Shown here: positions 42,345 through 59,962 of the stretch, piece after piece
How the letters are laid out: the number at the start of each line of letters is the position of its first letter
Numbering within the stretch: position 1 is the stretch's first letter
Origin: an uncultured Flavobacteriales bacterium
GTDB lineage: Bacteria; Bacteroidota; Bacteroidia; Flavobacteriales; BACL11
NCBI GenBank assembly: GCA_913063045.1
Contig: CAJXYM010000007.1
Coordinates: forward strand, 8,993 to 72,992
Length of the DNA: 64,000 nucleotides
Direction of reading: 5' to 3'
Made by a program: the position numbers and the translations under genes
The notes under the pieces: model-generated
Seen by the model: the letters and a program-made list of their open reading frames with translations, nothing else
Database searches by the model: none
Told to the model about the DNA's origin: nothing

Positions 42345-43073
42345 ATGTCTACAGATATATCAAAATTTCTTGACTCGACCTACTTAAAAGAATCTACAGA
42401 GCTAGGAATTTCCGAAAAAGAAAATCAAAAAATTGTTAAAGAATTTATTTTGGATGGAATTAAAATGGACTGTGCTTGTTTAATGATCCGTCCAAACTTT
42501 GTTCAACTAGCTTATGATCTTATTGCTAAAGCTAGTTCGAGTGTTAAAATTGGTACAGTTATTGACTTTCCATTCGGAAATGCATCTACAGAAGAAAAAA
42601 TTAAAGAAGCAAATTCTGTTATTGTTAATGGAGCCTATGATTTAGACTTTGTTTGTGATTATAATGCTTTCAAAAGAGGAAGTTTTGAAAAGTTTGATAA
42701 TGATATTTTATTATGTACAAAACTTGGTTTAGCAAATAAAAAAATTGTTAAATGGATAATTGAAACAGGAGCGCTATCTAAAGCAGAAATACGTAAGATT
42801 TCTATTAGAATACACCACATTGTATCCTCTGAATTCAATAAGGATTTGCAAAAAGTATTTATTAAAACTTCCACAGGTTATTATGGAGGCTCTGGAGCTA
42901 AGATCAAAGACATTAAGGTTATTAAGTCTGTTTGTGGAGATTTGTCTGTTAAGGCTTCAGGTGGTGTCTCTGACCTAAGTCAATGTCTTGAAATGATAGA
43001 AGCTGGTGCTTCCCGAATTGGAACTTCTAAGGCTTTAAAAATTTATAATGAAAAAAAACTCAATGAATTATAA
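42345..43073 (+). CDS. deoC: DeoC-family aldolase (deoxyribose-phosphate aldolase-like)
   Basis: Motifs DLDFV, KWIIETG and the Schiff-base region FIKTSTGY, followed by VKASGGV. Confidence 0.75.
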   Translation: MSTDISKFLDSTYLKESTELGISEKENQKIVKEFILDGIKMDCACLMIRPNFVQLAYDLIAKASSSVKIGTVIDFPFGNASTEEKIKEANSVIVNGAYDLDFVCDYNAFKRGSFEKFDNDILLCTKLGLANKKIVKWIIETGALSKAEIRKISIRIHHIVSSEFNKDLQKVFIKTSTGYYGGSGAKIKDIKVIKSVCGDLSVKASGGVSDLSQCLEMIEAGASRIGTSKALKIYNEKKLNEL

Positions 43074-43854
43074 GGAGTTATTATTATTAGCAGTGAATGC
43101 ATCTATAGATGGTGGAAAAGAGATAATGAAAATTTATGAATCTGATTTTAGTGTTGAACTTAAAGATGATAACTCTCCCTTAACTTTAGCTGATAGGAAA
43201 TGTAATGATATTATTGAAAAAGTATTGACTCAAACTCAAATACCTATTTTAAGTGAAGAAGGTGCTGCAGTTGATTATAATGAAAGAAAACTTTGGGACG
43301 TTTTTTGGTTAGTGGATCCATTAGATGGCACAAAAGAGTTTGTAAAGAGAAATGGTGAGTTTACTGTCAATATCGCTTTGATAGCTAATGGTAAACCGAT
43401 TATGGGAGTTATATATGTTCCAGTAAAGAATAAATTATATTATGCTATGGATGGGTTTGGCTCTTTTAAAATTCAGGTTAAAGATAATTTTAAGAATTTA
43501 GAAGATTTAATGCTTCCTTCAATTAAACTCCCTTGTCATAAAAATAAAAACAAATATGTCATTGTAGGCTCTAGATCGCATATGTCAATTGAGACCAAAC
43601 AATTTTTTGAAGAAAAAAAGAAAGAATATCAAAATGTAGAAATTTTAGCTATTGGTTCTTCATTGAAACTATGCATGGTAGCTGAAGGAATTGCAAACGC
43701 ATATCCTCGATATGCTCCAACTATGGAGTGGGATACGGGAGCTGGTCATGCTATTGTTAATATGTCTGGTTTTAAGGTTTTAGAACATTCTTCAGGTGAA
43801 GAATTACGATATAATAAAGAAAATTTATTGAATCCTTGGTTTCTTGTAATATAA
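43048..43854 (+). CDS. cysQ: 3'(2'),5'-bisphosphate nucleotidase CysQ (PAP phosphatase)
   Basis: IMPase-fold motifs SPLTLADR, ILSEEG and WLVDPLDGTKEFVKRNGEFTVNIAL, plus WDTGAGHA. An alternative ATG lies at 43063. Confidence 0.85.
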   Translation: MKKNSMNYKELLLLAVNASIDGGKEIMKIYESDFSVELKDDNSPLTLADRKCNDIIEKVLTQTQIPILSEEGAAVDYNERKLWDVFWLVDPLDGTKEFVKRNGEFTVNIALIANGKPIMGVIYVPVKNKLYYAMDGFGSFKIQVKDNFKNLEDLMLPSIKLPCHKNKNKYVIVGSRSHMSIETKQFFEEKKKEYQNVEILAIGSSLKLCMVAEGIANAYPRYAPTMEWDTGAGHAIVNMSGFKVLEHSSGEELRYNKENLLNPWFLVI

Positions 43855-43857
43855 TAG

Positions 43858-45222
43858 ATGCTTAAAAGAATAAAATATAATTTAGAGGATAAAGATTTTG
43901 CTGAACTATTTAATAAAGGAGGTTTGGCTTTTCTTTATAGAATTGGCGGTCAGATGTTGGGGTTTCTCTTAACATTTGTTATTGCATACTTTTTTGGAGC
44001 TAACGGTTTAGGTGATTATGTTTTAGCTATTGTAGTATTAAAGATTTTTACTTTAATTTCTAAGTTAGGTTTTGATACTGCATCAATTAAATTTATTGCT
44101 TCATTTGCTACAGAGAGAAAATATAAAAGTATTAAGTTATTTAGAAAAAAATCGCTATTGACAATTTCTGTAATGTCAATACTTCTTTCTATAATAATGT
44201 ATTTTTCAGCAGATTATATTGCCGATTTAATAAATGCTAATGCTGATTATATTAGAATAAATTCATTTTTTGTTTTACCTCTTTCATTTTTTATTTTTCA
44301 TTATCAAAACTTAAGAGGTTTAAAGAAAATTGGTCTTTATTCTTTTTTCTTTTGGACATCGCAAGCATTATTTTCTTTAATTTTTATATTAATTTATACT
44401 AGATTCTCAAAAGAACCAAGCATTCCTTTATATGCTTATTTATCCTCTGTTATTATTATTTCTGTACTGTCTTTTTTCATTTTTGAATATGTTCTGTCTA
44501 AACAAAAAAATAATGATAGTGAGATTGTTGAAAATCTAAAATTTAAGCAGATATTTTTAATTTCATTACCGCTTTTACTAGCTCAATCTGTTCAGTTTAT
44601 TATGTCTTGGACTGATAAGTTAATGCTTGGTATTTTAGATACACCTTCAGTTATTTCAGGGCTCTCAACAAATTCTGCTGAAATTGGAGTTTATCATACC
44701 GCATTTAAACTATCAATGTTTGCTACTATTGGATTACTTGCCATAAAAAGTATTGCATCTCCGAAGTTTGCAGAGTTATATAAGAAACAAGATTTTCAAT
44801 CTTTGCAAAAGGTAACTCAGCAATCAACAAAACTAATTTTTTGGACAACACTTCCTCTGGTCTTTGTTTTTATTTTTTGCTCTGATTTTTTAATGGGCTT
44901 ATTTGGAGAAGAATTTAAAGTTGGAGTTTTTTCATTTGTGATTTTGTCTTTAGGTAGACTTGTAGTTTCTTTTTCTGGAGCAGCAGGTAATTTACTTCAA
45001 ATGTGTGGTAAACAAGTAATCTTTATGAATGTTGCTATAATTGGTTCAATAATTAATATTGTTTTAAATTTTATTTTAATTCCTATTTATGGTATCAACG
45101 GCTCTGCAATAGCTACAATGGTTAGTATTGTTGTTTTTAATTTACTATTAGTCTATTATGTGAAAAGAGAATTTGGTTTCTATACATTTTATATTCCATT
45201 TATTCAAAAAATAAAAAAATGA
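43858..45222 (+). CDS. wzx: Wzx-like polysaccharide/oligosaccharide flippase (MOP superfamily)
   Basis: 454 aa, about 12 hydrophobic helices. The N-terminal LFNKGGLAFLYRIGGQMLGF pattern is typical of Polysacc_synt proteins. Confidence 0.75.
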   Translation: MLKRIKYNLEDKDFAELFNKGGLAFLYRIGGQMLGFLLTFVIAYFFGANGLGDYVLAIVVLKIFTLISKLGFDTASIKFIASFATERKYKSIKLFRKKSLLTISVMSILLSIIMYFSADYIADLINANADYIRINSFFVLPLSFFIFHYQNLRGLKKIGLYSFFFWTSQALFSLIFILIYTRFSKEPSIPLYAYLSSVIIISVLSFFIFEYVLSKQKNNDSEIVENLKFKQIFLISLPLLLAQSVQFIMSWTDKLMLGILDTPSVISGLSTNSAEIGVYHTAFKLSMFATIGLLAIKSIASPKFAELYKKQDFQSLQKVTQQSTKLIFWTTLPLVFVFIFCSDFLMGLFGEEFKVGVFSFVILSLGRLVVSFSGAAGNLLQMCGKQVIFMNVAIIGSIINIVLNFILIPIYGINGSAIATMVSIVVFNLLLVYYVKREFGFYTFYIPFIQKIKK

Positions 45223-46109
45223 GTTTGCCTAATCTTTTAATTGTAGGTGCTGCTAAGTCTGGAACTACGTCATTATATAATTATTTGTCTCAGCACTCAG
45301 ATCTTTTTACTTCTTCTCATAAGGAGCCGCATTTTTTAATTAATAATGAGATTGGAAAGACAAGAATTCCAAATGGTATTACTGAATTAAAAAGTTATAT
45401 GGATTTATTTTTAGGAAAAGATAGTTTTAAATACAGAGTAGAGGCAAGTACAATGTATCTGCAATTCCCGGACATATCTATTAAAAATATTAGAAAATAT
45501 TTAGATGCTGATACTAAGATTATTATTATGCTAAGAAACCCTATTGATAGAGCTTTTTCTGGATATAATCATGTTAAACGATATAATTTAGTAGAAAATT
45601 TAAGTTTTGAAAATGCGCTCGAATTATCTGAGGATAGGTACCATACAAATGTAAATATTACGCCAGCAAGTAGATATAAAAATATAGGGTTATATTATGA
45701 GATGGTTAAAAAGTTTATGAAAGAATTTAATGAAAGTTTACATATTATTATTTATGACGATTTTATATCTGAGCCTCAAAAAGAATTAGATAAAGTCTGC
45801 AGTTTTTTAAGTATTAATCAAACTCAATTTAATGTTAATAGTAAATATATGGTTGGAGGGTGGCAATGGAAAAGCCCATTTTTGAAGAAATTTTTCCTTT
45901 CAAAAGGAATAATTAAGAAAATATTTAGATTCTTATTTCCTTTTTCATCTCTAAGAGCTTTTTTAAAGAAAAATATTATAAGAAATCAAACAAGTAAAGT
46001 TCCAATGATGAAAAAAGCAACAAGAGAACATTTGTTAGAATACTATTATAATGATATTGTTAAACTATCTAAATTACTTTCTTTAGATCTAAATAAATGG
46101 TTAAAATGA
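45219..46109 (+). CDS. PAPS-dependent sulfotransferase (Sulfotransfer_1-like), paralogue 1
   Basis: 5'-phosphosulfate loop LLIVGAAKSGTTSL and 3'-phosphate motif LRNPIDRAFSGY. ATGA overlap with wzx. Confidence 0.8.
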   Translation: MSLPNLLIVGAAKSGTTSLYNYLSQHSDLFTSSHKEPHFLINNEIGKTRIPNGITELKSYMDLFLGKDSFKYRVEASTMYLQFPDISIKNIRKYLDADTKIIIMLRNPIDRAFSGYNHVKRYNLVENLSFENALELSEDRYHTNVNITPASRYKNIGLYYEMVKKFMKEFNESLHIIIYDDFISEPQKELDKVCSFLSINQTQFNVNSKYMVGGWQWKSPFLKKFFLSKGIIKKIFRFLFPFSSLRAFLKKNIIRNQTSKVPMMKKATREHLLEYYYNDIVKLSKLLSLDLNKWLK

Positions 46110-46999
46110 ATTTGCCTAATTTATTGATAATTGGAGCAGCTAAATCTGCTACCACATCATTATATAATATTTTAAGTAGTCATAAAGATATATTTGCGCC
46201 TGCTTTTAAAGAGCCTCATTTTTTTAATATCGATGATAATTTTTCAAATGGTATAGATTGGTATAGCCAAACTTATTTTAATAAAAAGAAGAATCAAAAA
46301 TATATTTTAGATGGAACTCCCACTTATTTGTATTCGTTAAAAGCTGCAGAAAGAATTTATAAAAATTTAGGAAGTGATGTGCAATTTATTGTTGTTTTAA
46401 GAAACCCTGTTGATAGGGCTTACTCTCATTATCTTCATACTAAAAGAGATGGTTTTGAAGAGTTAAGTTTTTTGGAGGCCTTAGAGGTTGAACAAAAAAG
46501 ATTGAATCATGCAAGAAAAAGTAATGATGTTTTGTCTGAACTTAGATTTTCTTATGTGTCTCAAGGAATGTACTCTAATATGTTAAGTGCTTATTTGAAG
46601 TTCTTTTCTGTTAATAATTTTTTAATTTTAGATTTTGATACTGATATTAAAGATAACTTTAAAAAATCTTTAGAAAAAATAGCTAATTTTATAAATATTG
46701 ATTTAAAAAATTTAGATGGTAAGAAGCATAGTAATAAAAGTAGTGTAGCAAGGTTTTCCTTTGTTAGAAATATTTTAATTTCACAGAGCTGGATTAGAAA
46801 AGTAATGAAAATAATTTTTTATTCTGCCCAAACAAGACAGATAATTAAAAATAAAATTCGTCATTTAAATGAAAAAGATTTTGCTTTTAAACCGTTATCT
46901 AAAAAGCTAAAAAAGGAACTTTTAGATAAGTATTTTGCAAATCAAGAAATAGATTTAGAAAACTTAATTGATAAAAAAATAAAGTGGCATAATCACTAA
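46106..46999 (+). CDS. PAPS-dependent sulfotransferase, paralogue 2
   Basis: LLIIGAAKSATTSL and LRNPVDRAYSHY. Start set at ATG 46106 (MNLPNLL, ATGA overlap), which parallels paralogue 1. The track start is 46097. Confidence 0.8.
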   Translation: MNLPNLLIIGAAKSATTSLYNILSSHKDIFAPAFKEPHFFNIDDNFSNGIDWYSQTYFNKKKNQKYILDGTPTYLYSLKAAERIYKNLGSDVQFIVVLRNPVDRAYSHYLHTKRDGFEELSFLEALEVEQKRLNHARKSNDVLSELRFSYVSQGMYSNMLSAYLKFFSVNNFLILDFDTDIKDNFKKSLEKIANFINIDLKNLDGKKHSNKSSVARFSFVRNILISQSWIRKVMKIIFYSAQTRQIIKNKIRHLNEKDFAFKPLSKKLKKELLDKYFANQEIDLENLIDKKIKWHNH

Positions 47000-48264
47000 T
47001 GTATAGTTTAAAAGAAAAATATACAGATAATTTACTGGTATTATTATTGATATTTACTGGTGGAGGCTTATTGTTTGTCTTTAATCGTAATCTAATGTAT
47101 TACTTTTTTCTTGGATCACTATCAGTTGTTATATTATTAAACTCTTTTCAGCTAAAAAGAGATCTTGTTAACTCAATAGTTTTTACGTCTCTTTCTATTA
47201 TTTCTCTTTTTCTTATCAACTTTTATTTTGCTATTTCAGAGCAATCATTAGATAAATATTTATATTATTTCACAGTTGTTATATCTTCTATTTTATTTTA
47301 TGTTCATTTTAAAAACAATAGAGATAATAGTGTCTTTCTAGCTCGTTTAAATTTTGTTTTAAAAATTATTTGTGTACATGCATTAATTAATTTTTTTGCT
47401 TATTTCTTTGTTTATGATCAGCTTTTTGAGATTAATTCAGAATATTATACTTGCAAAACATATAACTATCTTTTTTATTATGCTTCAGACGAAATTTCTC
47501 TATCAGTAATGAATCTTTTTGGAGTAGATTTTTGTAGAAACCAAGGCTTGTTTTGGGAGCCTGGAGTTTTACAAGTATATTTAAATCTTTTTTTCTTTCT
47601 TGAAGCTTTTATTTATAAAAGAAATAGATGGCTTTTATTAACTGGATTTGTAATTCTTGGAACATACTCCACAACTGGGATTCTTATTTTAATCGTACAG
47701 CTTTTATTTTTATTATTTCAAAAGTTTAAAGAGAATAAGTTATTTCTTCCTGTTATTTTCCTTTCTTTCATCCCTATTTATTTTATTACTTCAATAAATA
47801 TTGATGAAAAATTTAGAGGAAATCGTGTCTTTTCTTTTCAGAAAAGGTTGTTTGATTTAACACAGCCTATTTTTATTGCTCTTTCTCATCCATTAACTGG
47901 CGTAGGTTTGGACTTAGATCAGTTTCAAAAACTGCGCTATGAATTTTATATCGATGCTGAAAGTTTAGAGCTTATAAATGAAACGCTAGGAGTTTCATTG
48001 AAAGGAGCAGGGACAAGTGCTGGTAGTGCTAATTCTTTAACTTTTTTATTGGCTGCAATGGGGTTTCCGACAGCAATATTGTTTGTTTTTATGTTTTTAA
48101 AACAAAAAATAATTAATGATAAAAGATTTCTTTTTTTTATTATTGTTTTTGCTTCTGTGATGGCGGAGCCTCTTTTTCTTAGGCCATTTTTCTTTATTTT
48201 TATTGTTTCTGGCTTTTATAATTTCTTTTTTAAATTTACATCACATAGATCTAAAATTTCATGA
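46999..48264 (+). CDS. Wzy-like O-antigen/repeat-unit polymerase or ligase-family membrane protein
   Basis: 421 aa, about 10 helices with a larger loop region. Position between sulfotransferase and sugar-modifying genes. No strict motif. Confidence 0.5.
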   Translation: MYSLKEKYTDNLLVLLLIFTGGGLLFVFNRNLMYYFFLGSLSVVILLNSFQLKRDLVNSIVFTSLSIISLFLINFYFAISEQSLDKYLYYFTVVISSILFYVHFKNNRDNSVFLARLNFVLKIICVHALINFFAYFFVYDQLFEINSEYYTCKTYNYLFYYASDEISLSVMNLFGVDFCRNQGLFWEPGVLQVYLNLFFFLEAFIYKRNRWLLLTGFVILGTYSTTGILILIVQLLFLLFQKFKENKLFLPVIFLSFIPIYFITSINIDEKFRGNRVFSFQKRLFDLTQPIFIALSHPLTGVGLDLDQFQKLRYEFYIDAESLELINETLGVSLKGAGTSAGSANSLTFLLAAMGFPTAILFVFMFLKQKIINDKRFLFFIIVFASVMAEPLFLRPFFFIFIVSGFYNFFFKFTSHRSKIS

Positions 48265-49382
48265 AAAATATTTTAATAACTGGAGGAGCTGGATTTATTG
48301 GTTCTGCTTTGTCAAACAAATTAGCTGATGAAGGTTATAAAGTTACCATATTAGATAACTTATCTAAAAAAATTCATTCAGACAATAGTGCATATGAAGC
48401 TTTAAGATCTAAGTGTAATTTTATTATTGGTGATGTTAATAATAGATCTGATTGGGAAAATGCTATCATTTCTCAAGATGCTATTTTTCATTTAGCATCA
48501 GAAACAGGAACAGGAGAATCTATGTATGATATATTTAATTATTCTAACACAAATATTTCTGCTACAGCATTAATGTTAGATGTGCTAGTAAATACTAAAC
48601 ACCAGGTTAGAAAGATTGTCTTGTCATCATCTAGGGCTGTTTATGGTGAAGGTAAATATTTCTGTAATGATCATGGCGCGTTTTACCCATCCAGCAGAGA
48701 CTTAAAACATTTAGAAAAAAATGATTTTGATTTCACATGTCCTCTTTGTAATAATACATTGACTCAAGTTGCTACAGACGAAAGTTCAAATATTAATCCT
48801 TCATCAATATATGCAGTTAGTAAGCACACTCAAGAAAAGATGGTTCAAATTATTGGTGAAAGTTTAGCTATAAACACTGTTATACTGCGCTATCAAAATG
48901 TATTTGGTCCTGGACAATCTTTATCTAATCCTTACACAGGTATTCTCTCTATATTTTCAACCAGGATATTAAACAATAATGATATTGAAATCTATGAAGA
49001 TGGCTTTGAATCTAGAGATTTTATTTATATTGATGATGTAGTAGAAGCTTCTATTTTAGCACTAAATTATCAAAATATTAATGGAGAGGTTTTTAATGTG
49101 GGATCAGGAATTGCAACAACTGTACTGGATGTTGCTCAGCAATTGAAAAATAATTTTAATTCTAAGGTTAATATTACTATTACTAAGAAGTTTAGATTAG
49201 GAGATATAAGACATAATTTTGCAGATATTTCAAAGCTCAAAACTATTTTGAACTATCATCCAACTAATTCTTTTGAATCGGGATTAAGAAAGTTTGTTGA
49301 TTGGGTGAAAAGTCAAGAAATTCAAGAAGATAATTACTTAAAATCTATAGAGAAATTAAAAAACAAAGGATTATTTAGATGA
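48261..49382 (+). CDS. NAD-dependent sugar epimerase/dehydratase (extended SDR) with Cys/His-rich insertion
   Basis: Rossmann loop ITGGAGFIGS and catalytic YAVSKHTQE (YxxxK). Insertion CNDH...CPLC at 48663..48749. Confidence 0.85.
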   Translation: MKNILITGGAGFIGSALSNKLADEGYKVTILDNLSKKIHSDNSAYEALRSKCNFIIGDVNNRSDWENAIISQDAIFHLASETGTGESMYDIFNYSNTNISATALMLDVLVNTKHQVRKIVLSSSRAVYGEGKYFCNDHGAFYPSSRDLKHLEKNDFDFTCPLCNNTLTQVATDESSNINPSSIYAVSKHTQEKMVQIIGESLAINTVILRYQNVFGPGQSLSNPYTGILSIFSTRILNNNDIEIYEDGFESRDFIYIDDVVEASILALNYQNINGEVFNVGSGIATTVLDVAQQLKNNFNSKVNITITKKFRLGDIRHNFADISKLKTILNYHPTNSFESGLRKFVDWVKSQEIQEDNYLKSIEKLKNKGLFR

Positions 49383-50782
49383 AAAAAAAATTCATTTTCC
49401 TCTTTAGTTTTTTTATTACATTAAATTTATTCTCTCAGCAATTAATTAAAAATAATATTTTTGGTTTTGCAACCTCTAATACTTTTACATTTTTTGATGT
49501 TAATTCACAAGACTTTCAACAAAAGGTGCAGAATATTTCTCCTCAAAATTTAAGATTTCCCGGTGGCGCAGTCGGGAACTTTTATCATTATAATAAGCCT
49601 GCTTATGGTTTAGACATTAGAGAAATTGATTCCCTTATTAACGGTAAGTTTCCTAAAAGAGCTAGAGGATTAATTAGCTATTCTAGAAAAAGTAATCATA
49701 AAGAAAATTATATTAAAAATTTTATTTCTTTAGCAAAACAAAATAATGCTGATGTTGTGTTAGTTGCGAATATTTTAACAGCAAATGATGATGATATAAT
49801 AAATATGATTAGAGAAATGCTTGCTAATAATATTAATGTTCTGGGAGTTGAATTAGGTAGTGAGTTGTCAAATAAAAGTTATTTTGATAAAGGTTATGAA
49901 ATTGATGATTATATACTAGCAGCTAAAAAAACATCTAATAATATTAAAAGTTTATTTCCAGAAATCAAAACTGCTATTGTAGCAGCCCCACTGGTAAAGG
50001 ACAAAACACACAGACATACAATATGGAATAAGAGGCTTTCTAAAGAAAATTTTTACGATGCCATCATAGTGCATTCTTATGCTAAAGTTGTTAAAGGAAG
50101 GGATCAGTATGGTCAAATGATCTATGAAGAGAATGAAGGAAGTAAAGATGTTTCATTTGATGTATATAAAAATCGTTTAGATGAGTTTTTTAACAATACA
50201 TATCCACAAGAAATTAATACATATAATTCTGTGTTTTCTAATAAGCCAATTTGGATAACTGAATGGAATTTACAGTATTCTAAAAAAACAGGAAACACTC
50301 TATTTCAAGCTTTATTTGTAGCCAATTATTTTCTTGATATTCTTTCTAAAGAAGTTTTTAAGAAAATTGAAATAACTACTTTTCACAATCTAGCGGGTAG
50401 AGATTTTGGAGGTTCAATATTTCAAAAGAAAGATAATAAAACATTTGTCCAATCTACGTTTTATCCAATTAAAATGTTGAGTTCTATTTTTGGAAGTGAC
50501 TCTCTTATCATTCATTCAATAGAGACAAAAAATAACTTAAAAAAATACACTATCAGCAATAAGAATAATGTTGTGATGTTCGGTTATATTAATTGGTCTG
50601 AGAAGCCTCAAAATATTTTATTAGAAGAAAATCAAGTTTTTTTTAAAGAGGAGTTTTATGGAGATAGATTATATAGTTTAAATAGTAGCATTGGAGAGAT
50701 TCACTATAATTCCAATCAAATAAAATCCAATGGATCAATCACCTTAAAGCCTTATAGTTTTACTTTAATTAGAGAAAAATGA
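49379..50782 (+). CDS. Secreted clan GH-A-like (TIM-barrel) glycoside hydrolase-like protein
   Basis: Signal peptide ending LFSQQ. Motifs LRFPGG, GVELGSE (acid/base-like, Ser in place of the usual Asn) and PIWITEWN (nucleophile-like, compare DEWN/TEYN of GH51/GH39). Confidence 0.45.
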   Translation: MKKKFIFLFSFFITLNLFSQQLIKNNIFGFATSNTFTFFDVNSQDFQQKVQNISPQNLRFPGGAVGNFYHYNKPAYGLDIREIDSLINGKFPKRARGLISYSRKSNHKENYIKNFISLAKQNNADVVLVANILTANDDDIINMIREMLANNINVLGVELGSELSNKSYFDKGYEIDDYILAAKKTSNNIKSLFPEIKTAIVAAPLVKDKTHRHTIWNKRLSKENFYDAIIVHSYAKVVKGRDQYGQMIYEENEGSKDVSFDVYKNRLDEFFNNTYPQEINTYNSVFSNKPIWITEWNLQYSKKTGNTLFQALFVANYFLDILSKEVFKKIEITTFHNLAGRDFGGSIFQKKDNKTFVQSTFYPIKMLSSIFGSDSLIIHSIETKNNLKKYTISNKNNVVMFGYINWSEKPQNILLEENQVFFKEEFYGDRLYSLNSSIGEIHYNSNQIKSNGSITLKPYSFTLIREK

Positions 50783-52646: not shown

Positions 52647-53542
52647 GAGTAGTCTCTGTTACTTTTAATTCCAAGTATGTGATAAGACCGTTTTTAGATT
52701 CTGTTTTTTCTCAAATAGGTACTCAGTTTATTTTATATATCATTGATAATAATTCAAATGATAATACTCTTGATATTATAAATCAATTTAATGAGCCTAA
52801 TATTAAAATAATTCAAAATCAGACTAATTTAGGAGTAGCTACTGCCAATAATATTGGAATAAGAAGTGCTATAGAGGATAATTGTTCAAATATTTTATTG
52901 TTGAATAATGATATTGAATTTGATCAGAATCTTTTCAGTGGTTTACTCGAGAATCAGAAAAAGTATAAGTGTAGTCTAGTCGTGCCAAAAATAATGTTTT
53001 ATGAAGATAAGAAAATTATATGGTATGCTGGTGGTTGGTTTAAGCGCTCAAGAGGTTTTCTTCCATTTCATAGAGGTTTGAAACAAATTGATACTGGTCA
53101 ATTTGATACTGCTTTGCAAGTTGAATATGCTTCCACTTGTTGTCTTTTAATTTGTAAAAGTGTTTTTGAGGATACAGGAATGATGGATGAGAAATATTTC
53201 GTGTATTTTGATGATACTGATTTTTTATATAGAATTCTCAAGGGATTAAAACATCAGCTGTGGTATTGTCCTGACTTAAAATTATTTCATAAGGTTGGGA
53301 GCTTATCAAAGTCTTTTAGTAATAAGAAAAATAACTTGGTTCGAGGTGATTTTTTTATTAAACAGAATATTAGAAATCATATCTATTTTTTAAGAAAACA
53401 GAAAAATATTTATTGTTCCTTTTTTATTGTTATTCTATTTTTTAGAAATAATTTAAGGTTTATTTTCAGCCCTTCAATGAAAAAAGATATCTCCACTTTT
53501 TTATTAATAAATAAATCTTTTTTTGAAGGTATTAGGCTATAG
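52634..53542 (+). CDS. Family 2 glycosyltransferase
   Basis: Motifs VVSVTFNS...IIDNNSNDNT, LLLNNDIEF and YFDDTDF (DxD-like). Confidence 0.8.
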   Translation: MEKIGVVSVTFNSKYVIRPFLDSVFSQIGTQFILYIIDNNSNDNTLDIINQFNEPNIKIIQNQTNLGVATANNIGIRSAIEDNCSNILLLNNDIEFDQNLFSGLLENQKKYKCSLVVPKIMFYEDKKIIWYAGGWFKRSRGFLPFHRGLKQIDTGQFDTALQVEYASTCCLLICKSVFEDTGMMDEKYFVYFDDTDFLYRILKGLKHQLWYCPDLKLFHKVGSLSKSFSNKKNNLVRGDFFIKQNIRNHIYFLRKQKNIYCSFFIVILFFRNNLRFIFSPSMKKDISTFLLINKSFFEGIRL

Positions 53543-54511
53543 TTTTTTGCCAATACTGAAAGAGTCTGTAAATATTTCATTAACCATTAATAAGCTGACA
53601 GAGTCATTTGTATGTATAGGGTCCGTAAAGCATGATTTGCAATTTGTAATTGAATTTGGAAAATCATAATCTATTACATTTCCAATATTTTGAATATCAT
53701 TTTTATACCTTTCTTCTGCTTTAGATAATTTGAAATCGATTACTCTATCTCTATAATCCTTGTGATGAGGGACATTTAATAAGGTGAGTTTTATATTGTT
53801 TTCTGCGCAGTACCTATCAACTTCTGTAAGTCTAATTATCAAATTTTCAGGATACTTGTATCTAGAGTATTGGTTTTTTGCAACTGTTTTTATATTAAAT
53901 TCCCACCATATTTTTTTGTCTTTAAAACTTTTGCCTTTTAAGGCTCTTTTTAGCATAATATTTCTCTCAATATTTGGTACAGAAACTGATGTTAAATGAT
54001 GCAGGATTGCTTTGCTAGTAACCTCCAATACACTACCATTAAAAATATATAATAATGGGTTCTCTATTATTTTATCAACCTCATCTACTCTGTTCGCATA
54101 AGCATATTTATTATAAAGGTTAAAGTTAATCCCCAGTATTACATTTTCTAATTTTGAATATTTAGTTGATAACCAGAATAAATCAATAATTTCGTTAAGT
54201 TTAGCTGCATTCGAGTGAAGTATAAAGTACTTATCTCCACTAATTTTTTCTATCTCTGATATAGGCAGTCTTTTGATTCTTGAGTCGCCGATAATGATAT
54301 TTGGTGTAGGATTATTTTTAAAATAAATTGTATTGTATAGCAATGAATTTAATTTTCTTGCTGTTTGTTGTTTTGTTTTTTCCTCTACCAAGCTAAAATT
54401 AGAAAAGTAGTTAAATGGATCAATCATTTTTAATATCATTACCCACAATATAATTGGAATAAGCAATATGCTTATTTTAAATAATAACTTTTTTATGTCT
54501 TTTGCAATCAT
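53537..54511 (-). CDS. Membrane-anchored SGNH/DltD/AlgX-like partner of the MBOAT acyltransferase
   Basis: N-terminal TM helix, block-I-like IIIGDSRI, C-terminal DPIHTN (DxxH). 1-nt overlap with the MBOAT stop. Confidence 0.5.
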   Translation of the reverse strand: MIAKDIKKLLFKISILLIPIILWVMILKMIDPFNYFSNFSLVEEKTKQQTARKLNSLLYNTIYFKNNPTPNIIIGDSRIKRLPISEIEKISGDKYFILHSNAAKLNEIIDLFWLSTKYSKLENVILGINFNLYNKYAYANRVDEVDKIIENPLLYIFNGSVLEVTSKAILHHLTSVSVPNIERNIMLKRALKGKSFKDKKIWWEFNIKTVAKNQYSRYKYPENLIIRLTEVDRYCAENNIKLTLLNVPHHKDYRDRVIDFKLSKAEERYKNDIQNIGNVIDYDFPNSITNCKSCFTDPIHTNDSVSLLMVNEIFTDSFSIGKKL

Positions 54512-55968
54512 TAGAATTGAAAGTATATAAAGTTATTTACTGATGAGTGAGGAGCAAGAAATAATATGCCATAAATCAGAATATAGTAAAGCGACCATCT
54601 CATCCATATTGGTTTTGTTTGTAATTTTGTCCACAAATTATCTGATCTTTCATAGATGCTATAGCCTACAAGTAAAACTATTAGAAAAGTACATTTTAAC
54701 AAGTCATTGAAATAGATTCCAATACCCCTAAATTGCATTCCTATGTTATTGTATTCATTTAAATCATTGAACATGTGTTTAATTACGTAAATAGCGTCAT
54801 CTAAATTATTTGCTCTAAAGAAAATCCAAGCAAAAGATACTAGAGAAAACGTGATAATAATATTTAGGAAACTATTTAATTTTGGACTGATATTAGTTAT
54901 TATCTTAGATATGTTTTGTTTGGGAGTATTTAATACGAGTGCACTTACTAAATACGTGCCATGTAATGCACCCCAAATGATAAAAGTCCAATTTGCACCG
55001 TGCCATAGACCACTTAGTAAAAAGGTGATAATTATATTATAGTACCACTTCCACTTAACTACTCTATTGCCGCCTAGCGGTATATACAAATAATCCTTAA
55101 ACCAAGAAGATAGAGTAATATGCCATCTTTGCCAAAACTCTTGAATAGATTTTGAAAAATAGGGTCTCTTGAAATTCTCTCTTAATTCAAATCCCATTAT
55201 TCTAGCTGAGCCAATTGCAATATCTGAATAGCCAGAAAAATCACAGTAAATTTGAAATGTAAAAAAGATAGTTGCAACTATTAGTGTGATCCCCGAGTAG
55301 CTCTCTAAATTATTATAGACACCATCTACTAAAAGTGCTAGATTATCAGCAATAACTATTTTCTTAAAGAACCCCCAAAGCATTTTTTGTAATCCCGATT
55401 TAATTCTATTATATTCAAATTTATGCTCTTTGAAAAATTGAGGTAATAAATGATTAGATCTTTCTATAGGTCCGGCTACAAGTTGGGGAAAGAATGAAAC
55501 ATAAACGGCAAATACTCCTAAATGCTTTTGTGCCGGTGTCTTATTATTATAAACATCAATTGTATAGCTTAAAGTTTGGAAAGTATAAAATGATATCCCT
55601 ACAGGAAGGAGCACATTGAAAAAAGGGATGTCATAGAATATGTTGTATTGATTAAATAATAACTGAAAGTTTTCACTAAAAAAATTAAAGTATTTAAAGC
55701 CAAATAAAATCCCGAGGTTACTAAAAAGACTAATTATTAGCCATTTTTTTCTTTTTTCTTTGATTTTAATTTTAGACATTCTATTTGAACATATAAAATC
55801 AATTAAAGTAGAAAGCATTATTAAAATAATATAATCTACTTTCCAGCACATATAAAAATAATAGCTTGCAATTAAAAGTAAACACCATCTTATTTTATGA
55901 GGAGTAATAAAATATAAGAAAATTACAATTGGAAAAAAAACTATAAAATGTAATGAGTTAAATAACAT
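54511..55968 (-). CDS. MBOAT-family O-acyltransferase (AlgI/DltB-like)
   Basis: Polytopic, 485 aa. Motifs FWQRWHITLSSWFKDYLYIPLGGNR and LSGLWHGANW with the conserved His. Confidence 0.9.
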   Translation of the reverse strand: MLFNSLHFIVFFPIVIFLYFITPHKIRWCLLLIASYYFYMCWKVDYIILIMLSTLIDFICSNRMSKIKIKEKRKKWLIISLFSNLGILFGFKYFNFFSENFQLLFNQYNIFYDIPFFNVLLPVGISFYTFQTLSYTIDVYNNKTPAQKHLGVFAVYVSFFPQLVAGPIERSNHLLPQFFKEHKFEYNRIKSGLQKMLWGFFKKIVIADNLALLVDGVYNNLESYSGITLIVATIFFTFQIYCDFSGYSDIAIGSARIMGFELRENFKRPYFSKSIQEFWQRWHITLSSWFKDYLYIPLGGNRVVKWKWYYNIIITFLLSGLWHGANWTFIIWGALHGTYLVSALVLNTPKQNISKIITNISPKLNSFLNIIITFSLVSFAWIFFRANNLDDAIYVIKHMFNDLNEYNNIGMQFRGIGIYFNDLLKCTFLIVLLVGYSIYERSDNLWTKLQTKPIWMRWSLYYILIYGILFLAPHSSVNNFIYFQF

Positions 55969-55998: not shown

Positions 55999-56079
55999 CA
56001 TTTCTTAAGACTAATTATAGACAAATATACAAATACAAAATAATCATAAAAAGGTATTATATTTAAAGCTTTTAAAAAA

Positions 56080-57246
56080 ATGAAGATAAAAGTTGCGATA
56101 ATTGATCATTTAGGAGCTCATGGGAGTTCTCATCACTTTTATTTATTTGGACAAGCGATTGGACTTATAAATTCTGGAGTTGATGTGAGTTTATACACAA
56201 ACTCTAAGACGCATGACCCAAAGATTAAGCAATTAAAATTTTTTCAATTTTATAAAGACATATTTTTAAAGCATAATAAATTTCTGTCTGCTATTAGGTA
56301 TTTATCAGGATCAATCTTTTCTCATTTACATGCTAAAAAAAATGGATGTAAAGTTTTTCATTATCATATTTTTGGATTTAGTGTTTTAGTATTGTTTAAT
56401 ATGCTTTTAGCTAAAATTTGTTTTGGAAAAATTGTTTTAACAATTCATGATGTTAGAAGTTTTGCTAATCCAGATTCTTCTAAAATATATACTAAGTTAA
56501 TATATGCATTAACAGATAAGATTCTTACTCATAATAATTATAGTAAGCATGAGATTATAAAATATCATACTGATATAGAGCATAAAATTAATGTTATTCC
56601 TCATGGTAATTATTTGCCATTTATTATAAAACAAGTAAATAAAAAGAAGTCAAGAAAAAAAATTGGTCTCGACACAGATGGCAAGGTTATTTTGTTTTTT
56701 GGTATGATAAAAAAAGTTAAATGCTTAGATTTATTATTAAAAGCAATGCCAGAGGTGATTAAGGAAAATGAGCATATAACTTTACTTATTGCTGGCAAAC
56801 CCTGGAAGGATGATTTCTCTAATTATCAGCAAATAATTGATGAACTCAGTATTGCTAAAAGTTGTGTTTTGCATATTAATTTCATTAATCATGAAGATGT
56901 GGAGCACTATTACTGTGCTTCAGACCTAGTTGTTTTACCATATAGTAAGATTTATCAAAGTGGAGTTTTAATGATGAGTTTAAGTTATGGAAAGCCTGTC
57001 GTTCTATCTGATTTAGAAGCGTTTAAGGAGGTAGTTGAAGATCATAAACATGCGTTTTTCTTTGTATCTGGTAATAAGAAATCGCTGTCTGATGTTATCA
57101 TAAAAGCATTAAATTCTCCTGTTTTATTAGATGAAATTGCCTCAAATGGCCTAGCTTTGATGGAAAATAGTTTTAGCTGGCATAAAATTGGTGCTCAAAC
57201 AAAAGCTGCTTATTTAAAAATCAATTATTTTTACAAAGGAAAATAA
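56080..57246 (+). CDS. GT-B fold glycosyltransferase (GT4-like)
   Basis: 388 aa. C-terminal half shows the GT4 pattern (ILFFGMIKKVKCLDLLL...ASDLVVLPY...SGVLMMSLSYGKPVV). Confidence 0.75.
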   Translation: MKIKVAIIDHLGAHGSSHHFYLFGQAIGLINSGVDVSLYTNSKTHDPKIKQLKFFQFYKDIFLKHNKFLSAIRYLSGSIFSHLHAKKNGCKVFHYHIFGFSVLVLFNMLLAKICFGKIVLTIHDVRSFANPDSSKIYTKLIYALTDKILTHNNYSKHEIIKYHTDIEHKINVIPHGNYLPFIIKQVNKKKSRKKIGLDTDGKVILFFGMIKKVKCLDLLLKAMPEVIKENEHITLLIAGKPWKDDFSNYQQIIDELSIAKSCVLHINFINHEDVEHYYCASDLVVLPYSKIYQSGVLMMSLSYGKPVVLSDLEAFKEVVEDHKHAFFFVSGNKKSLSDVIIKALNSPVLLDEIASNGLALMENSFSWHKIGAQTKAAYLKINYFYKGK

Positions 57247-57822
57247 ATGAAAGATAAAATTTTTAAAATATTTAATGAGTCTGCTGAAAACATCTCTAAT
57301 GTTTCTAAAGATCATTATTTAATCGCTTCGATGGAGAAGGTTGTTGCTCTATCCTCTGAAGCTTTTAATAATAATCAAAGGATTCTCTTTTGTGGAAATG
57401 GAGGTAGTGCTGCTGACGCTCAACATATAGCTGCAGAACTTAGCGGTAGGTTTCTAAAAGAAAGAAAAGCATTATTTGCTGAAGCACTTCATGTTAATTC
57501 ATCTTATCTCACAGCGGTAGCTAATGATTACGGTTTTGAATATACATATTCAAGAATTTTAGAAGCTACAGGTAGAAAAGGAGATGTCCTTATAGGCTTA
57601 TCTACATCAGGAAACTCTTTAAATGTAATTAATGCTCTTAAAAAGGCAAAAGAAATAGGTATGAAAACGATTGGTTTTACTGGCAAAGATGGTGGTAAGA
57701 TGTGTGATGTTTGTGATATTGTTTTCAATATACCTTCTAGCAATACCGCTAGAATTCAAGAAGCTCATATTCTGCTTGGTCATACTCTCTGTCAATTGAT
57801 TGAAGAAAAACTATTTGATTAA
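57247..57822 (+). CDS. gmhA: D-sedoheptulose-7-phosphate isomerase
   Basis: SIS-domain motif LFCGNGGSAADAQHIAAELSGRF, plus GLSTSGNS and QEAH. Confidence 0.88.
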   Translation: MKDKIFKIFNESAENISNVSKDHYLIASMEKVVALSSEAFNNNQRILFCGNGGSAADAQHIAAELSGRFLKERKALFAEALHVNSSYLTAVANDYGFEYTYSRILEATGRKGDVLIGLSTSGNSLNVINALKKAKEIGMKTIGFTGKDGGKMCDVCDIVFNIPSSNTARIQEAHILLGHTLCQLIEEKLFD

Positions 57823-57827
57823 TAAAT

Positions 57828-58313
57828 ATGTATGATACTCTATTTTTAGACAGGGATGGTGTTATAAATTATAAGCTCGAGAATAGATACGTTACTCGAG
57901 CTTCTGAATTTAAATTTATTGTTGGAGCTGAAAATGCAATTAAGAAATTAAGTAAAGTGTTCAATAGAATCTTAATTGTTACTAATCAACAAGGTATTAG
58001 CAAGGGAATTATGTCTGAGAATAATTTAGATACTGTTCATCAATTTATGCAAAATCAATTATCAGGTTCTGAAAAATTTATTGAAAAAATATATTTTTGC
58101 CCACACTTAGCTTCCTATAGTTGTAATTGTCGTAAACCAAATATCGGTATGCTCGAGCAAGCTAAAATTGACTTCCCTTTAATTGATATTTCTAAATCCT
58201 ACTTAGTAGGAGATTCTGATACTGATATTGCGGCTGGTAAGAGATTTGGTCTTAAAACAGTTAAGGTAGATAGTGTTTTTACTCTTGCTCACTGGTCTAA
58301 AAGTATTTTATGA
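57828..58313 (+). CDS. gmhB: D,D-heptose 1,7-bisphosphate phosphatase (HAD-IIIA)
   Basis: Motifs FLDRDGVIN, TNQQGI, Zn-loop CPHLASYSCNCRKP and GDSDTDIAAG. Confidence 0.85.
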   Translation: MYDTLFLDRDGVINYKLENRYVTRASEFKFIVGAENAIKKLSKVFNRILIVTNQQGISKGIMSENNLDTVHQFMQNQLSGSEKFIEKIYFCPHLASYSCNCRKPNIGMLEQAKIDFPLIDISKSYLVGDSDTDIAAGKRFGLKTVKVDSVFTLAHWSKSIL

Positions 58314-59962
58314 TTATTAATAATTTTCTTTTTTATTTTTATAAAAGTAATTTCATATGTAAGTTTCTCTATGCTTTTTTATTTTTTTATTTTTTATCTT
58401 TAAGTTATGCCTTTTCTCAGCATACTAATCTCCCCATGGGAAAGAGTTTTTATAATTTAGTTGATAAAGAAATTCATCATGGTGATAATCACACCGCATT
58501 TAAGCCTCTTATTAAGTCAACAATGGATCTTAATTTAGATTCATTATTATCTCCGATAGTTTTGTTTAAAAGAAATATCTTCAAAAAAAATATTTTTAAT
58601 CGAGATTGGTTGATTATTACTGGAGAAGGTTACAAGATTAAAGCTTCTCCATTATTTAATTTTTCATTAGGATATGAGAGTGAAGAAGAGAAAAATACAT
58701 TTGTAAATACAAGAGGCTTTAGTATCCATGGAGATATTGGCTCTAAAGTTTCTTTTCATACGTCATTTGTTGAGAATCAGGCTATTTTCCCTAACTATAT
58801 TGATTCTCTTATTAGTTCTCCAACGCAAGGACGTGTTGTACCAGGACAAGGTATGGGACGTGTTTATTATGACAAAGGATTTGATTATGCAAAATCCTCT
58901 GGATATGTAGGGGTTAAGGCAACGGAGAATATTTTATTACAGTTTGGACATGGCAAACATTTTATTGGAAATGGCTATCGTTCTTTACTTTTATCAGATA
59001 ATTCATTTAATTATCCTTTTTTAAGAATTCAAACTTCTTTTGGAGATTTTCAGTACTCTAATCTTTACGCTGAGCTTCAAGATCTTAAAAATTATTTGTC
59101 CGCTGATAATAACTATGACTATATGGGATATGCCAAAAAATATATGTCTACTCATTATCTTTCCTATAATATTAATGAAAAATTAAATATAGGATTATTT
59201 GAATCTATTATTTGGAAGACAAACCATGCTTTAGGAGCCACTGGTTTTGATGTAAACTACCTAAATCCTATTATATTTTTTAGACCAGTTGAGTTTTCAA
59301 TTAATTCGCCTGATAACGCTATTCTTGGTCTAAATTGTAAATATAAAACATCAACTAATTCATATGCTTATGGTCAATTAGTTTTTGATGAATTTACAAT
59401 TAATGAATTAAAATCTGATAATGGTTATTGGGCTAATAAATATGGTTATCAGATTGGTTTTAAGGCTTTTGATTTATTAGATGTTCCTAATTTGACTTTT
59501 AATGTAGAAAGAAACCTCGTTAGACCATATACTTATAGTCATTGGAATTCTTCAAATTACGGTCATTATAATGAAGAATTAGCTCATCCTCTTGGAGCAA
59601 ATTTTGCGGAAAATATTCTTTTAATTAAATATCGAAAAGACAGGTTAACATTAGAGTTTAAATATTTGGATATAATCTCTGGAGCTGATTATTTAAATGA
59701 TACTATTTCTTATGGGTCTAATATATACGCTGATTATAATGATAGAAATTCAGATTATGGAATAGAAATGTTTAATGGTAATAAAACAAATATTCATTAT
59801 GCTAAGATAAATTTTGGTTATATATTAAATCCATCAACTAATTTTAAAATTGATTTTTCAATTGTAAAGAGAACGCTTTCCTACGATATCTCCGTCTATA
59901 AAACAATGTTTTATTCCGTCTCCCTAAAGTCTGATTTATTTAACCATTATTATGATTTTTAA
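58310..59962 (+). CDS. Outer-membrane protein, Wzi/RemB-like (capsule-assembly family?)
   Basis: 550 aa, signal peptide, Tyr/Gly/Asn-rich beta-barrel character. Position at the end of the glycan locus. The family call is from memory only. Confidence 0.4.
   Translation: MIINNFLFYFYKSNFICKFLYAFLFFYFLSLSYAFSQHTNLPMGKSFYNLVDKEIHHGDNHTAFKPLIKSTMDLNLDSLLSPIVLFKRNIFKKNIFNRDWLIITGEGYKIKASPLFNFSLGYESEEEKNTFVNTRGFSIHGDIGSKVSFHTSFVENQAIFPNYIDSLISSPTQGRVVPGQGMGRVYYDKGFDYAKSSGYVGVKATENILLQFGHGKHFIGNGYRSLLLSDNSFNYPFLRIQTSFGDFQYSNLYAELQDLKNYLSADNNYDYMGYAKKYMSTHYLSYNINEKLNIGLFESIIWKTNHALGATGFDVNYLNPIIFFRPVEFSINSPDNAILGLNCKYKTSTNSYAYGQLVFDEFTINELKSDNGYWANKYGYQIGFKAFDLLDVPNLTFNVERNLVRPYTYSHWNSSNYGHYNEELAHPLGANFAENILLIKYRKDRLTLEFKYLDIISGADYLNDTISYGSNIYADYNDRNSDYGIEMFNGNKTNIHYAKINFGYILNPSTNFKIDFSIVKRTLSYDISVYKTMFYSVSLKSDLFNHYYDF

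Follow-up and report, generated by a model that had tools for sequence, protein, structure and literature searches.

Introduction

Marine sulfated polysaccharides are usually credited to algae, and Flavobacteriia have been studied as degraders. Gene clusters that bear sulfotransferases and have a sulfated product have already been described in Synechocystis (synechan; PMC8205485), and for Cobetia marina KMM 1449 and Vibrio sp. KMM 8419 the sulfated capsule structures were solved and the clusters described (PMC11766843, PMC11641403). According to the authors, genes for 3'-phosphoadenosine 5'-phosphosulfate (PAPS) together with sulfotransferases in one cluster are a hallmark of sulfated-polysaccharide synthesis (PMC11641403). 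For synechan, assembly and modification of the repeat unit take place on a lipid carrier and precede flipping (PMC8205485). Here we describe the locus at 42345-59962 of a 64-kb stretch of contig CAJXYM010000007.1 from an uncultured Flavobacteriales bacterium (the whole stretch is called the window, and coordinates refer to it). It is probably a Wzx-dependent locus for a sulfated, O-acylated cell-surface glycan, vertically inherited in an uncultured marine Flavobacteriales clade whose nearest named member is the NS9 marine group, or BACL11 in GTDB.

Given the Synechocystis, Vibrio and Cobetia clusters, the kind of system is already known, which an earlier note on this DNA, made from the letters and their open reading frames (ORFs), had missed. 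The present locus differs in its phylum, in Wzx-type assembly that goes with unusually many sulfotransferases relative to glycosyltransferases, in having a clan GH-A-like hydrolase and an MBOAT pair as accessories, and in fixed vertical inheritance in an abundant uncultured marine clade. The earlier note knew of no such pathway worked out for Flavobacteriia; our full-text searches, whose coverage of the literature was not exhaustive, likewise turned up no work on how Flavobacteriia might make sulfated glycans, nor any combining 'NS9' and 'sulfotransferase'. A study of Shark Bay mats had no sulfotransferase in its Bacteroidetes metagenome-assembled genomes (MAGs).

Comparison with described clusters

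Like the synechan xss cluster of Synechocystis sp. PCC 6803, the locus is a cluster of probable Wzx/Wzy type with PAPS-type sulfotransferases, those of xss belonging to two subfamilies (PMC8205485). The xss cluster has two sulfotransferases to eight glycosyltransferases, whereas this locus has four to two. The former is plasmid-borne and has the co-polymerase XssK and the regulatory module XssQ/R/S, whereas no co-polymerase was found in the window. Points not shared with xss are the operon-encoded CysQ, the PAPS module that adjoins the locus in relatives, the MBOAT pair, the GH-A-like hydrolase and a fixed position in the core genome.

The Cobetia and Vibrio clusters contain cysN, cysD, cysC and sulfotransferases, with cysQ named in Cobetia (PMC11766843, PMC11641403), and the product of Vibrio sp. 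KMM 8419 carries both an O-acyl group and sulfate. These are ABC-transporter (Kps) capsules of Gammaproteobacteria, encoded by 70-80 genes with signs of horizontal transfer; in comparison, this locus is compact (18 genes), Wzx-type and vertically conserved, and the copy in the window is without the PAPS module. As to the published hallmark, sulfotransferases and cysQ lie inside the cluster in the window, and cysD, cysN and cysC were found neither in it nor beside it.

For comparison we fetched stretches carrying orthologous loci, which are given L-numbers. Among cultured bacteria, Aquimarina pacifica SW150 (Flavobacteriaceae; L038, 3621-17606) has a simpler arrangement, in the order CysQ, cysC, cysD, cysN, SDR, Wzx, sulfotransferase, Glf, GT2, GT4, an unknown gene, Wzy_C and GT4. 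Reading that locus from its genes alone, we find that it differs from the present one in having one sulfotransferase (33% identical to ST1, see below), a UDP-galactopyranose mutase and more glycosyltransferases; the GH-A hydrolase, the MBOAT pair and GmhA/B were not detected in the fetched stretch.

PAPS-type sulfotransferases and CysQ

Families were assigned by Pfam and NCBIfam profile searches with curated cut-offs. Four proteins, named here ST1 to ST4, scored above the cut-offs of Sulfotransfer_1 (22 bits) and Sulfotransfer_3 (27 bits), with 63.5/53.1, 65.9/44.1, 56.8/94.1 and 50.4/34.6 bits, respectively, while NCBIfam has no model for any of them. The 5'-phosphosulfate loops GAAKSGTTS, GAAKSATTS, GSSRSGTTM and GAPKAGTTS are all present and are conserved in orthologues. 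The 3'-phosphate motif R-N/D-P-x-D/E-R-A-F/Y-S occurs in three of the four proteins, whose orthologues keep it. In alignments of 21-49 orthologues the 5'-phosphosulfate binding (PSB) loop, an E-x-H/N-F-F segment and the 3'-phosphate binding motif are invariant or nearly so. The conserved motifs are GAAKxGTxSL, KEPxF and MLRNPxxRAxS in ST1; GAxKSxTT, FKEPHFF and RxPVDRAYS in 21 orthologues of ST2; GSSRSGTTM (with Arg in the PSB loop), ExHFF and RDxRDVLLSQ in ST3; and GAPKxGTTSL and LRxPxxRAxSH in ST4.

Alignments of ST1 (5e-34) and ST4 (6e-36) with the bacterial enzyme 3rnl, which carries only the generic PDB name 'Sulfotransferase', run over the full length. The next solved relatives of ST1 are heparan sulfate N-sulfotransferase (NST) and 3-O-sulfotransferases (3-OSTs), and the KEPNFF of ST4 aligns with NEVHFF of heparan sulfate 3-OST-1, which we take to be the catalytic-base region of that enzyme. 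ST2 is 33% identical to ST1. Like the heparan sulfate sulfotransferases and 3rnl, ST1, ST2 and ST4 share the PSB-loop Lys, E-x-H-F-F and R-x-P-x-x-R-x-x-S; their identity to the animal enzymes is low (E 1e-5 to 1e-10). The nearest solved relatives of ST3 are the sulfotransferase domains of CurM and OLS (2e-8), and its ELHFF aligns with ELHLL of 4gox, the best-matching solved polyketide synthase sulfotransferase domain. ST3 has a C-terminal hydrophobic segment (299-317), a predicted membrane anchor, and ST4 also has a hydrophobic segment, which fits action on a membrane-bound acceptor.

Family scores, resemblance to solved structures and the conserved cofactor and catalytic motifs all mark the four as genuine sulfotransferases of the PAPS type. 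This agrees with the earlier note, which had called them so from the four loops and three 3'-phosphate motifs. The note's further suggestion of sulfation at up to four positions is not established by these data. The operon also encodes CysQ, whose DPxDGTKEF and WDT motifs are kept in 35 orthologues; CysQ was found in relatives wherever the fetched stretch reaches its position.

Conservation of the locus among relatives

A search with ST1 gave 1500 homologues at E<=1e-10. Among the best 120 of these, identity is 53-99% and almost every protein has the full length of about 296 aa; the source is nearly always a metagenome assembly, in several cases from Tara Oceans, and the named few are 'Flavobacteriales bacterium' MAGs. 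In a survey with one genome per GTDB species, the locus was found syntenic in about 30 species, all of them uncultured marine Flavobacteriales known from MAGs or single-amplified genomes. SprA-GcvH-TonB lies on one side in nearly every locus (L018 has other genes upstream), and the other flank is TsaB and a DEAD helicase in L057 and L058, the two loci that reach that far. The nearest species representative, FRAM18_bin220 (SprA 88% and TonB 95% identical), has a genome of 1.72 Mb with 29.4% GC and was placed by its authors in the NS9 marine group by 16S and in GTDB family BACL11 (PMC8254474, supplementary file 1).

Gene maps showed identical gene order throughout the relatives' loci. The core genes are CysQ, Wzx, ST1, the Wzy_C protein, SDR, the GH-A hydrolase, ST4, GT2, GT4, GmhA and GmhB; the variable ones are a second ST1-like gene or ST2, ST3, DeoC and the MBOAT pair. 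Each locus has 3 to 5 sulfotransferases, the presence of ST2 and ST3 varying among relatives, and no DeoC orthologue was detected in L019, L020, L025, L026 and L030. Compared with L001, one of the nearer relatives, Wzx is 75%, the Wzy_C protein 80% and MBOAT 82% identical (SprA 78%), while the sulfotransferases are 52-62% and other soluble enzymes 57-62% identical. In more distant relatives the Wzy_C protein is 40-53% identical and is conserved no better than the sulfotransferases. The pattern in the nearer relatives is the reverse of that of a typical variable O-antigen locus and suggests a conserved backbone with changing sulfation. A horizontally acquired O-antigen island was considered and rejected, since there is no abrupt GC step and the site and gene order are conserved across the clade. 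On these comparisons, an entire clade of uncultured marine bacteria has conserved the locus and passed it on vertically, a point that the earlier note had missed.

Two Chitinophagales MAGs (L036, 1-20867; L039, 1-18764) have six sulfotransferase genes together with CysQ, Wzx, MBOAT, GT2 and GT4, so that multi-sulfotransferase glycan loci extend beyond Flavobacteriales within Bacteroidota. In L058, a long-read, pilon-polished contig, MBOAT (6180-7645) and GmhB (9520-10004) are each split into two ORFs, which are more likely assembly indels than pseudogenes.

PAPS module and initiating transferase

Most relatives have cysN-cysD-cysC divergently placed between TonB and DeoC. In the window these genes are cleanly absent there: the TonB-DeoC spacing is 116 nt (42229-42344), and it resembles the spacer of relatives only in the DeoC-proximal part, TAGATTTG included. 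L019, L020, L023, L024 and L027 are also without cysN and cysD in the fetched stretch, so cysN and cysD appear to move. Between the genes for GmhB and the barrel protein, a PF00953 (WecA/MraY-type) transferase is encoded in at least ten relatives (L018, L021, L023-L026, L028, L031, L033 and L057, in the last at 8907-10001). The ten carriers all come from the branch that lacks the MBOAT pair. Apart from the window, L058 alone among the loci with the pair is covered at the GmhB-barrel junction, and there too the transferase is absent. That cysNDC and a WecA-type transferase belong to the locus of relatives matches the published hallmark logic and supports the reading as a sulfated-glycan locus. 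The earlier note had missed that this copy is without the PAPS-synthesis genes and the initiating transferase kept by relatives.

An assembly artefact was rejected as the cause of the missing cysNDC. L056, an independent metagenome assembly of the same species with about 99% nucleotide identity, has the identical TonB-DeoC junction, and the arrangement is therefore real. The comparison with L056 took in eleven genes, three flanking ones (from SprA) plus DeoC through the hydrolase; all were intact and free of indels, and pN/pS was 0-0.3 for 10 of the 11 genes, on small substitution counts. From these substitution patterns the genes of the locus look maintained, and the missing PAPS-synthesis and starter functions are presumably encoded elsewhere in the genome.

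Organization of the locus

The locus has 18 genes, and all ORFs are intact. As the earlier note had described and the ORF map confirms, eleven plus-strand ORFs are packed from 42345 to 53542 (Table 1); a convergent minus-strand pair (53537-55968) and, by our count, five plus-strand genes to 59962 follow. The junctions in the eleven-ORF run are, in order, -26, +3, -4, -13, -1, -4, -4, -4, -1 and -13 nt, that of ST1 and ST2 becoming -4 nt with the ATG at 46106 as the start of ST2. The ATGA type accounts for five or six of the junctions and two are 1-nt overlaps, and on this spacing we regard the run as translationally coupled. The GmhB and barrel genes overlap by 4 nt (58310-58313). GC is 26-30% across the locus and 29-34% in the flanks, without an abrupt step at the boundaries. 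Three of the encoded proteins (467, 324 and 550 aa) have no family match; the main parts otherwise score in the expected families in the profile searches that the earlier note had recommended, its labels DeoC, CysQ, Wzx, extended SDR, GT2, GT4 and MBOAT all agreeing with the family scores.

Table 1. Genes of the 42345-59962 locus and the upstream promoter candidate, with the evidence for each assignment.
Feature	Position	Strand	Evidence
TAGATTTG, candidate Bacteroidetes-type -7 promoter box	42312..42319	+	26 nt upstream of first gene; octamer conserved in three relatives
DeoC-family class I aldolase	42345..43073	+	TIGR00126 135.4 bits, cut-off 117.3
CysQ, 3'(2'),5'-bisphosphate nucleotidase (removal of 3'-phosphoadenosine 5'-phosphate)	43048..43854	+	TIGR01331 257 bits, cut-off 228.8
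Wzx-type flippase, MOP superfamily	43858..45222	+	Polysacc_synt 55 bits, cut-off 28.2
Sulfotransferase ST1, heparan-sulfate 3-OST/NST-like	45219..46109	+	Sulfotransfer_1 63.5 bits; 3rnl 5e-34
Sulfotransferase ST2, ST1 paralogue; probable start 46106	46097..46999	+	Sulfotransfer_1 65.9 bits
Wzy_C-domain polytopic membrane protein	46999..48264	+	Wzy_C (PF04932) 33.4 bits, cut-off 31.7
Extended SDR, nucleotide-sugar epimerase or dehydratase	48261..49382	+	Epimerase 163.6 bits, GDP_Man_Dehyd 144 bits
Secreted clan GH-A-like glycoside hydrolase, 467 aa	49379..50782	+	AlphaFold2 model and Foldseek
Sulfotransferase ST3, Sulfotransfer_3 type	50779..51783	+	Sulfotransfer_3 94 bits
Sulfotransferase ST4, 3-OST-like	51783..52646	+	Sulfotransfer_1 50.4 bits; 3rnl 6e-36
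GT2 glycosyltransferase	52634..53542	+	Glycos_transf_2 73 bits; weak rhamnosyltransferase-subfamily match
Membrane-anchored MBOAT partner, 324 aa, SGNH/DltD-like by motif only	53537..54511	-	Invariant motifs
MBOAT acyltransferase, DltB/AlgI-like	54511..55968	-	MBOAT 93 bits, cut-off 27
GT4 glycosyltransferase	56080..57246	+	Glycos_transf_1 84 bits, Glyco_trans_1_4 75 bits
GmhA-like sedoheptulose-7-phosphate isomerase	57247..57822	+	SIS_2 91 bits; TIGR00441 206.8 bits, cut-off 209.45
GmhB-like HAD-IIIA phosphatase	57828..58313	+	PRK08942 139.5 bits, cut-off 178
Outer-membrane beta-barrel protein, 550 aa, distant Wzi-family relative (candidate)	58310..59962	+	3' end of locus

Flippase, Wzy_C protein and sugar genes

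Besides the match in Table 1, the Wzx protein has MatE and MurJ matches and twelve hydrophobic segments. The Wzy_C protein has at least 9 hydrophobic segments and a loop of about 80 residues at 267-348. NCBIfam has no model for it, and sequence and profile searches of the PDB gave no match. It is probably the polymerase, the alternative being a ligase or an O-oligosaccharyltransferase (O-OTase). WaaL and PglL enzymes depend on a histidine in the large external loop. The family alignment of the Wzy_C protein shows no invariant His in that loop, which argues mildly against an enzyme of the WaaL or PglL type.

The lysine motifs KTSTGYY and KASGG of DeoC are kept in 25 orthologues. The SDR, with conserved GGAGFIG and YxxxK motifs, has GalE (157 bits), RmlB (139 bits) and HldD (120 bits) as its best NCBIfam models, all under their cut-offs. 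The GmhB-like protein is also under the equivalog cut-offs, while the domain model TIGR01656 scores 120 bits, above its cut-off of 84. Pfam scans covered most, though not all, ORFs of at least 100 aa in the window, and among those scanned there is no sugar kinase or nucleotidyltransferase of the heptose route. Heptose as a component of the glycan, to which the note's listing of heptose genes pointed, is accordingly not established.

Secreted GH-A-like hydrolase

The 467-aa protein has no Pfam or NCBIfam match, and sequence and profile searches of the PDB found nothing or chance-level matches. Its 428 homologues are nearly all unnamed or 'hypothetical', with one JGI entry named alpha-L-arabinofuranosidase; they are apparently confined to loci of this type. 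An AlphaFold2 model built on an alignment of 37 sequences had a mean confidence (pLDDT) of 89.4, and Foldseek matched it to GH51 arabinofuranosidases and a GH79 beta-glucuronidase (E 1e-18, TM-score 0.6-0.68, 10-16% identity). GH79 is the heparanase family. In clan GH-A the acid/base and nucleophile glutamates follow barrel strands 4 and 7. E158/E162 and T294-E295-W296 are invariant in the family of the 467-aa protein, and the predicted strands 154-158 and 291-298, taken as barrel strands 4 and 7, end at E158/E162 and E295. The predicted model thus has the features of a clan GH-A fold, a (beta/alpha)8 barrel with strand-4/7 glutamates and a beta-sandwich. With an N-terminal signal-like segment as well, the protein seems to represent a GH-A family not yet described, and to carry a signal peptide, and the confident model with its invariant candidate catalytic glutamates upholds the label 'glycosidase-like' that had been given to it.

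MBOAT pair and outer-membrane barrel

The MBOAT protein scores 155 bits with the DltB model, under the equivalog cut-off. Its 324-aa partner has one N-terminal transmembrane segment and invariant IIGDSRI and F-x-D-P-x-H-T motifs. No Pfam, NCBIfam or PDB match was found for the partner, even with a profile of 12 orthologues, and Pfam on all 12 orthologues gave scattered chance matches only. As in AlgI/AlgJ/AlgX, DltB/DltD and PatA/PatB, the MBOAT gene adjoins that of a single-pass anchored protein with GDS and, later, D-x-x-H; unlike in those O-acylation systems, the partner here matches no known family by sequence or profile. Of the MBOAT and SGNH pair proposed earlier, the MBOAT stands by its family score and the SGNH label comes down to the two short motifs. 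The two genes are present or missing jointly across relatives. A hexapeptide-repeat acetyltransferase gene lies between ST4 and GT2 in L021 (15502-15984) and L057 (5206-5691), both without the MBOAT pair; its taking the place of the pair suggests alternative cytoplasmic and extracytoplasmic routes of O-acylation.

The 550-aa barrel protein has no Pfam match of its own, and a profile search of the PDB finds nothing. It has more than 6000 homologues, and 5 of 25 at about 52% identity match PF14052 (Wzi; best 7e-9). The AlphaFold2 model is of low confidence (pLDDT 57.7, about 18 strands); Foldseek matched this low-confidence model to generic porins and AlgE only (TM-score <=0.38), and Wzi was not singled out. 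The 'Wzi-like' label of the earlier note is hence tentative: a few homologues point to it, and the protein's own searches and model do not. In L057 and L058 the barrel gene comes before TsaB, and in L021, L025 and L026 it stands after the locus.

Proposed pathway and alternative explanations

The analysis shows the gene identities, the motifs, the hydrolase fold, the synteny and the distribution of the locus; from these we infer a substrate, an order of steps, polymerization and a PAPS source as follows. A polyprenyl-phosphate sugar-1-phosphate transferase, of the WecA type in at least 10 relatives and encoded outside the window here, would start the unit on undecaprenyl phosphate. GT2 and GT4 would extend it, with sugars supplied partly via the SDR and possibly GmhA and GmhB. 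The four sulfotransferases, which may be membrane-proximal, would sulfate the lipid-linked unit on the cytoplasmic side of the membrane with PAPS as donor, and the operon-encoded CysQ would hydrolyse the inhibitory 3'-phosphoadenosine 5'-phosphate. The unit would then be flipped by Wzx and polymerized, most likely by the Wzy_C protein; outside the cytoplasm the glycan would be O-acylated by the MBOAT and its anchored partner, and the chains may be trimmed or released by the secreted GH-A-like hydrolase. At the outer membrane the beta-barrel protein may retain or pass the product. Of the sulfated repeat-unit surface glycan envisaged in the earlier note, sulfation has the sulfotransferases, CysQ, the Wzx and Wzy_C families and the relatives' cysNDC and WecA-type genes behind it, while the polymer, as well as the four positions and heptose, is not established.

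Several points weigh against such a sulfated, Wzx-dependent glycan. There is no tblastn match to cysN, cysD or cysC anywhere in the window and no PF00953 homologue or other initiating transferase there; the window ORFs scanned include no Wzz, Wzc, Wza or WaaL, and the genes for heptose activation are missing among them. Only two glycosyltransferases stand beside four sulfotransferases. The Wzy_C match is only 1.7 bits above the cut-off, in a family that also holds ligases and O-OTases, so of the note's Wzx/Wzy polymer the two families are supported and the separation of Wzy_C from WaaL and O-OTase is not. The MBOAT pair lies on the opposite strand and is optional among relatives, and so could serve another polymer.

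Some of these points would fit a sulfated lipooligosaccharide, with the Wzy_C protein as a WaaL-type ligase joining a single flipped unit to lipid A-core, so that the product would be an outer core conserved in the clade and neither a capsule nor an O-polymer. PF04932 is the O-antigen ligase family and the score barely passes its cut-off; with two glycosyltransferases and neither chain-length regulator nor exporter among the scanned ORFs, the product could be short, and Wzx and Wzy_C match housekeeping conservation in nearer relatives (75-80%, SprA 78%), which is typical of core-type loci. We nevertheless consider this unlikely, because the large external loop has no invariant His, no WaaL in the PDB was matched even with a profile, and a secreted hydrolase, an extracytoplasmic MBOAT pair and a large barrel fit a polymer better. 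The same loop argues against the Wzy_C protein being the O-OTase of the general protein O-glycan of Bacteroidota, in which case the locus would make its species-specific part, and transfer of the flipped unit to D(S/T)(A/I/L/V/M/T) sites would yield sulfated glycoproteins. That glycosylation is phylum-wide and proceeds through undecaprenyl-linked glycans and Wzx, and as of 2022 no O-OTase was known for it (PMC8729774); the locus here is clade-conserved, has few glycosyltransferases and adjoins genes of the type IX secretion system (T9SS), namely SprA and C-terminal domain proteins. However, that work on P. gingivalis, the one O-glycan paper examined for this point, does not mention sulfate (PMC8729774). 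We know of no O-glycosylation locus of Bacteroidota with a Wzy_C gene, a periplasmic hydrolase or an MBOAT pair, and we hold this explanation to be quite improbable.

A locus that is non-functional or decaying in this species, having lost cysNDC and the starter and with them PAPS and initiation, would account for the 116-nt TonB-DeoC spacing without cysN, cysD or cysC matches, the identical junction in L056 and the lack of a PF00953 homologue in the window. Yet none of the 18 ORFs is broken, no indel occurs in the eleven genes that L056 covers, their pN/pS is mostly 0-0.3 (on small substitution counts), and the motifs are fully retained; L019, L020, L023, L024 and L027 are also without cysN and cysD, and L058 has no transferase at the GmhB-barrel junction. 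Decay seems to us about as improbable as the protein O-glycan. Finally, the sulfotransferases might act on a non-glycan acceptor such as a lipid, a small molecule or protein tyrosine and be merely co-located with glycan genes, as might be thought from the polyketide-pathway relatives of ST3, a weak match to tyrosylprotein sulfotransferase and the lack of any NCBIfam model naming the four. Their genes are, however, interleaved and coupled with those of Wzx, Wzy_C, SDR and GT2 in an order conserved in about 30 species, and ST1, ST2 and ST4 are closest to carbohydrate (heparan sulfate) sulfotransferases, which makes this very improbable indeed. Taken with the interleaved operon, the hydrolase, the MBOAT pair and the barrel favour a polymeric sulfated glycan over these alternatives.

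Possible significance

It is possible, although doubtful, that the ubiquitous, uncultured NS9/BACL11 family is coated with a densely sulfated, glycosaminoglycan-like glycan with about one or more sulfates per sugar, carrying a bacterial 'sulfation code'. The idea arises because the set of sulfotransferases changes (3 to 5 genes, 45-65% identity) while Wzx and Wzy are far more conserved among nearer relatives. If the locus makes a sulfated glycan, planktonic Flavobacteriia would be producers, and not only consumers, of marine sulfated polysaccharide, and there would be an added bacterial source of sulfated glycans in marine carbon and sulfur cycling. The cell surface would be strongly anionic, which bears on resistance to phages and grazers, metal binding and aggregation. 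For glycan engineering the locus also offers a compact set of four putative carbohydrate sulfotransferases, besides a glycoside hydrolase family that is probably new, and the simpler locus of A. pacifica SW150, with the same logic in a culturable bacterium, is a possible experimental entry point.

Promoter candidate and rest of the window

The window contains 113 copies of the motif TAnnTTTG where chance alone would give 113.9, so that it is not enriched, and a TAnnTTTG box alone carries no weight at such a frequency. The identical TAGATTTG is found at the same upstream position and distance from the first gene in L001, L005 and L006, where the flanking spacer bases diverge; this conservation lends modest support to the promoter call. 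The earlier note had placed the eleven genes behind a single such box. The conserved octamer speaks for the box, but 'single' is not literally true, since other TAnnTTTG matches fall within the locus, and that one promoter drives all eleven genes is not established. A sigma-70 promoter scan of the window was uninformative in this AT-rich Bacteroidota sequence (140 promoter-like sites, 120 expected), as was a terminator scan (2 found, 5.5 expected), and searches of the window for Rfam families and tRNAs gave no match.

Outside the locus the window carries housekeeping genes, with BamA, two OmpH, UppS, PdxJ, alternative complex III, RuvA, RuvB, T9SS cargo and SprA. At 9266-11666 on the minus strand lie three genes in the same direction, whose products are a LuxE-like acyl-protein synthetase, a GNAT acetyltransferase and a protein with a metallo-beta-lactamase fold. 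DUF6588, two Omp28-like proteins, DUF6029 and Por_Secre_tail proteins are among the products of an outer-membrane and T9SS-cargo gene cluster at 26300-33301, which lies a short way upstream of RuvA and SprA.

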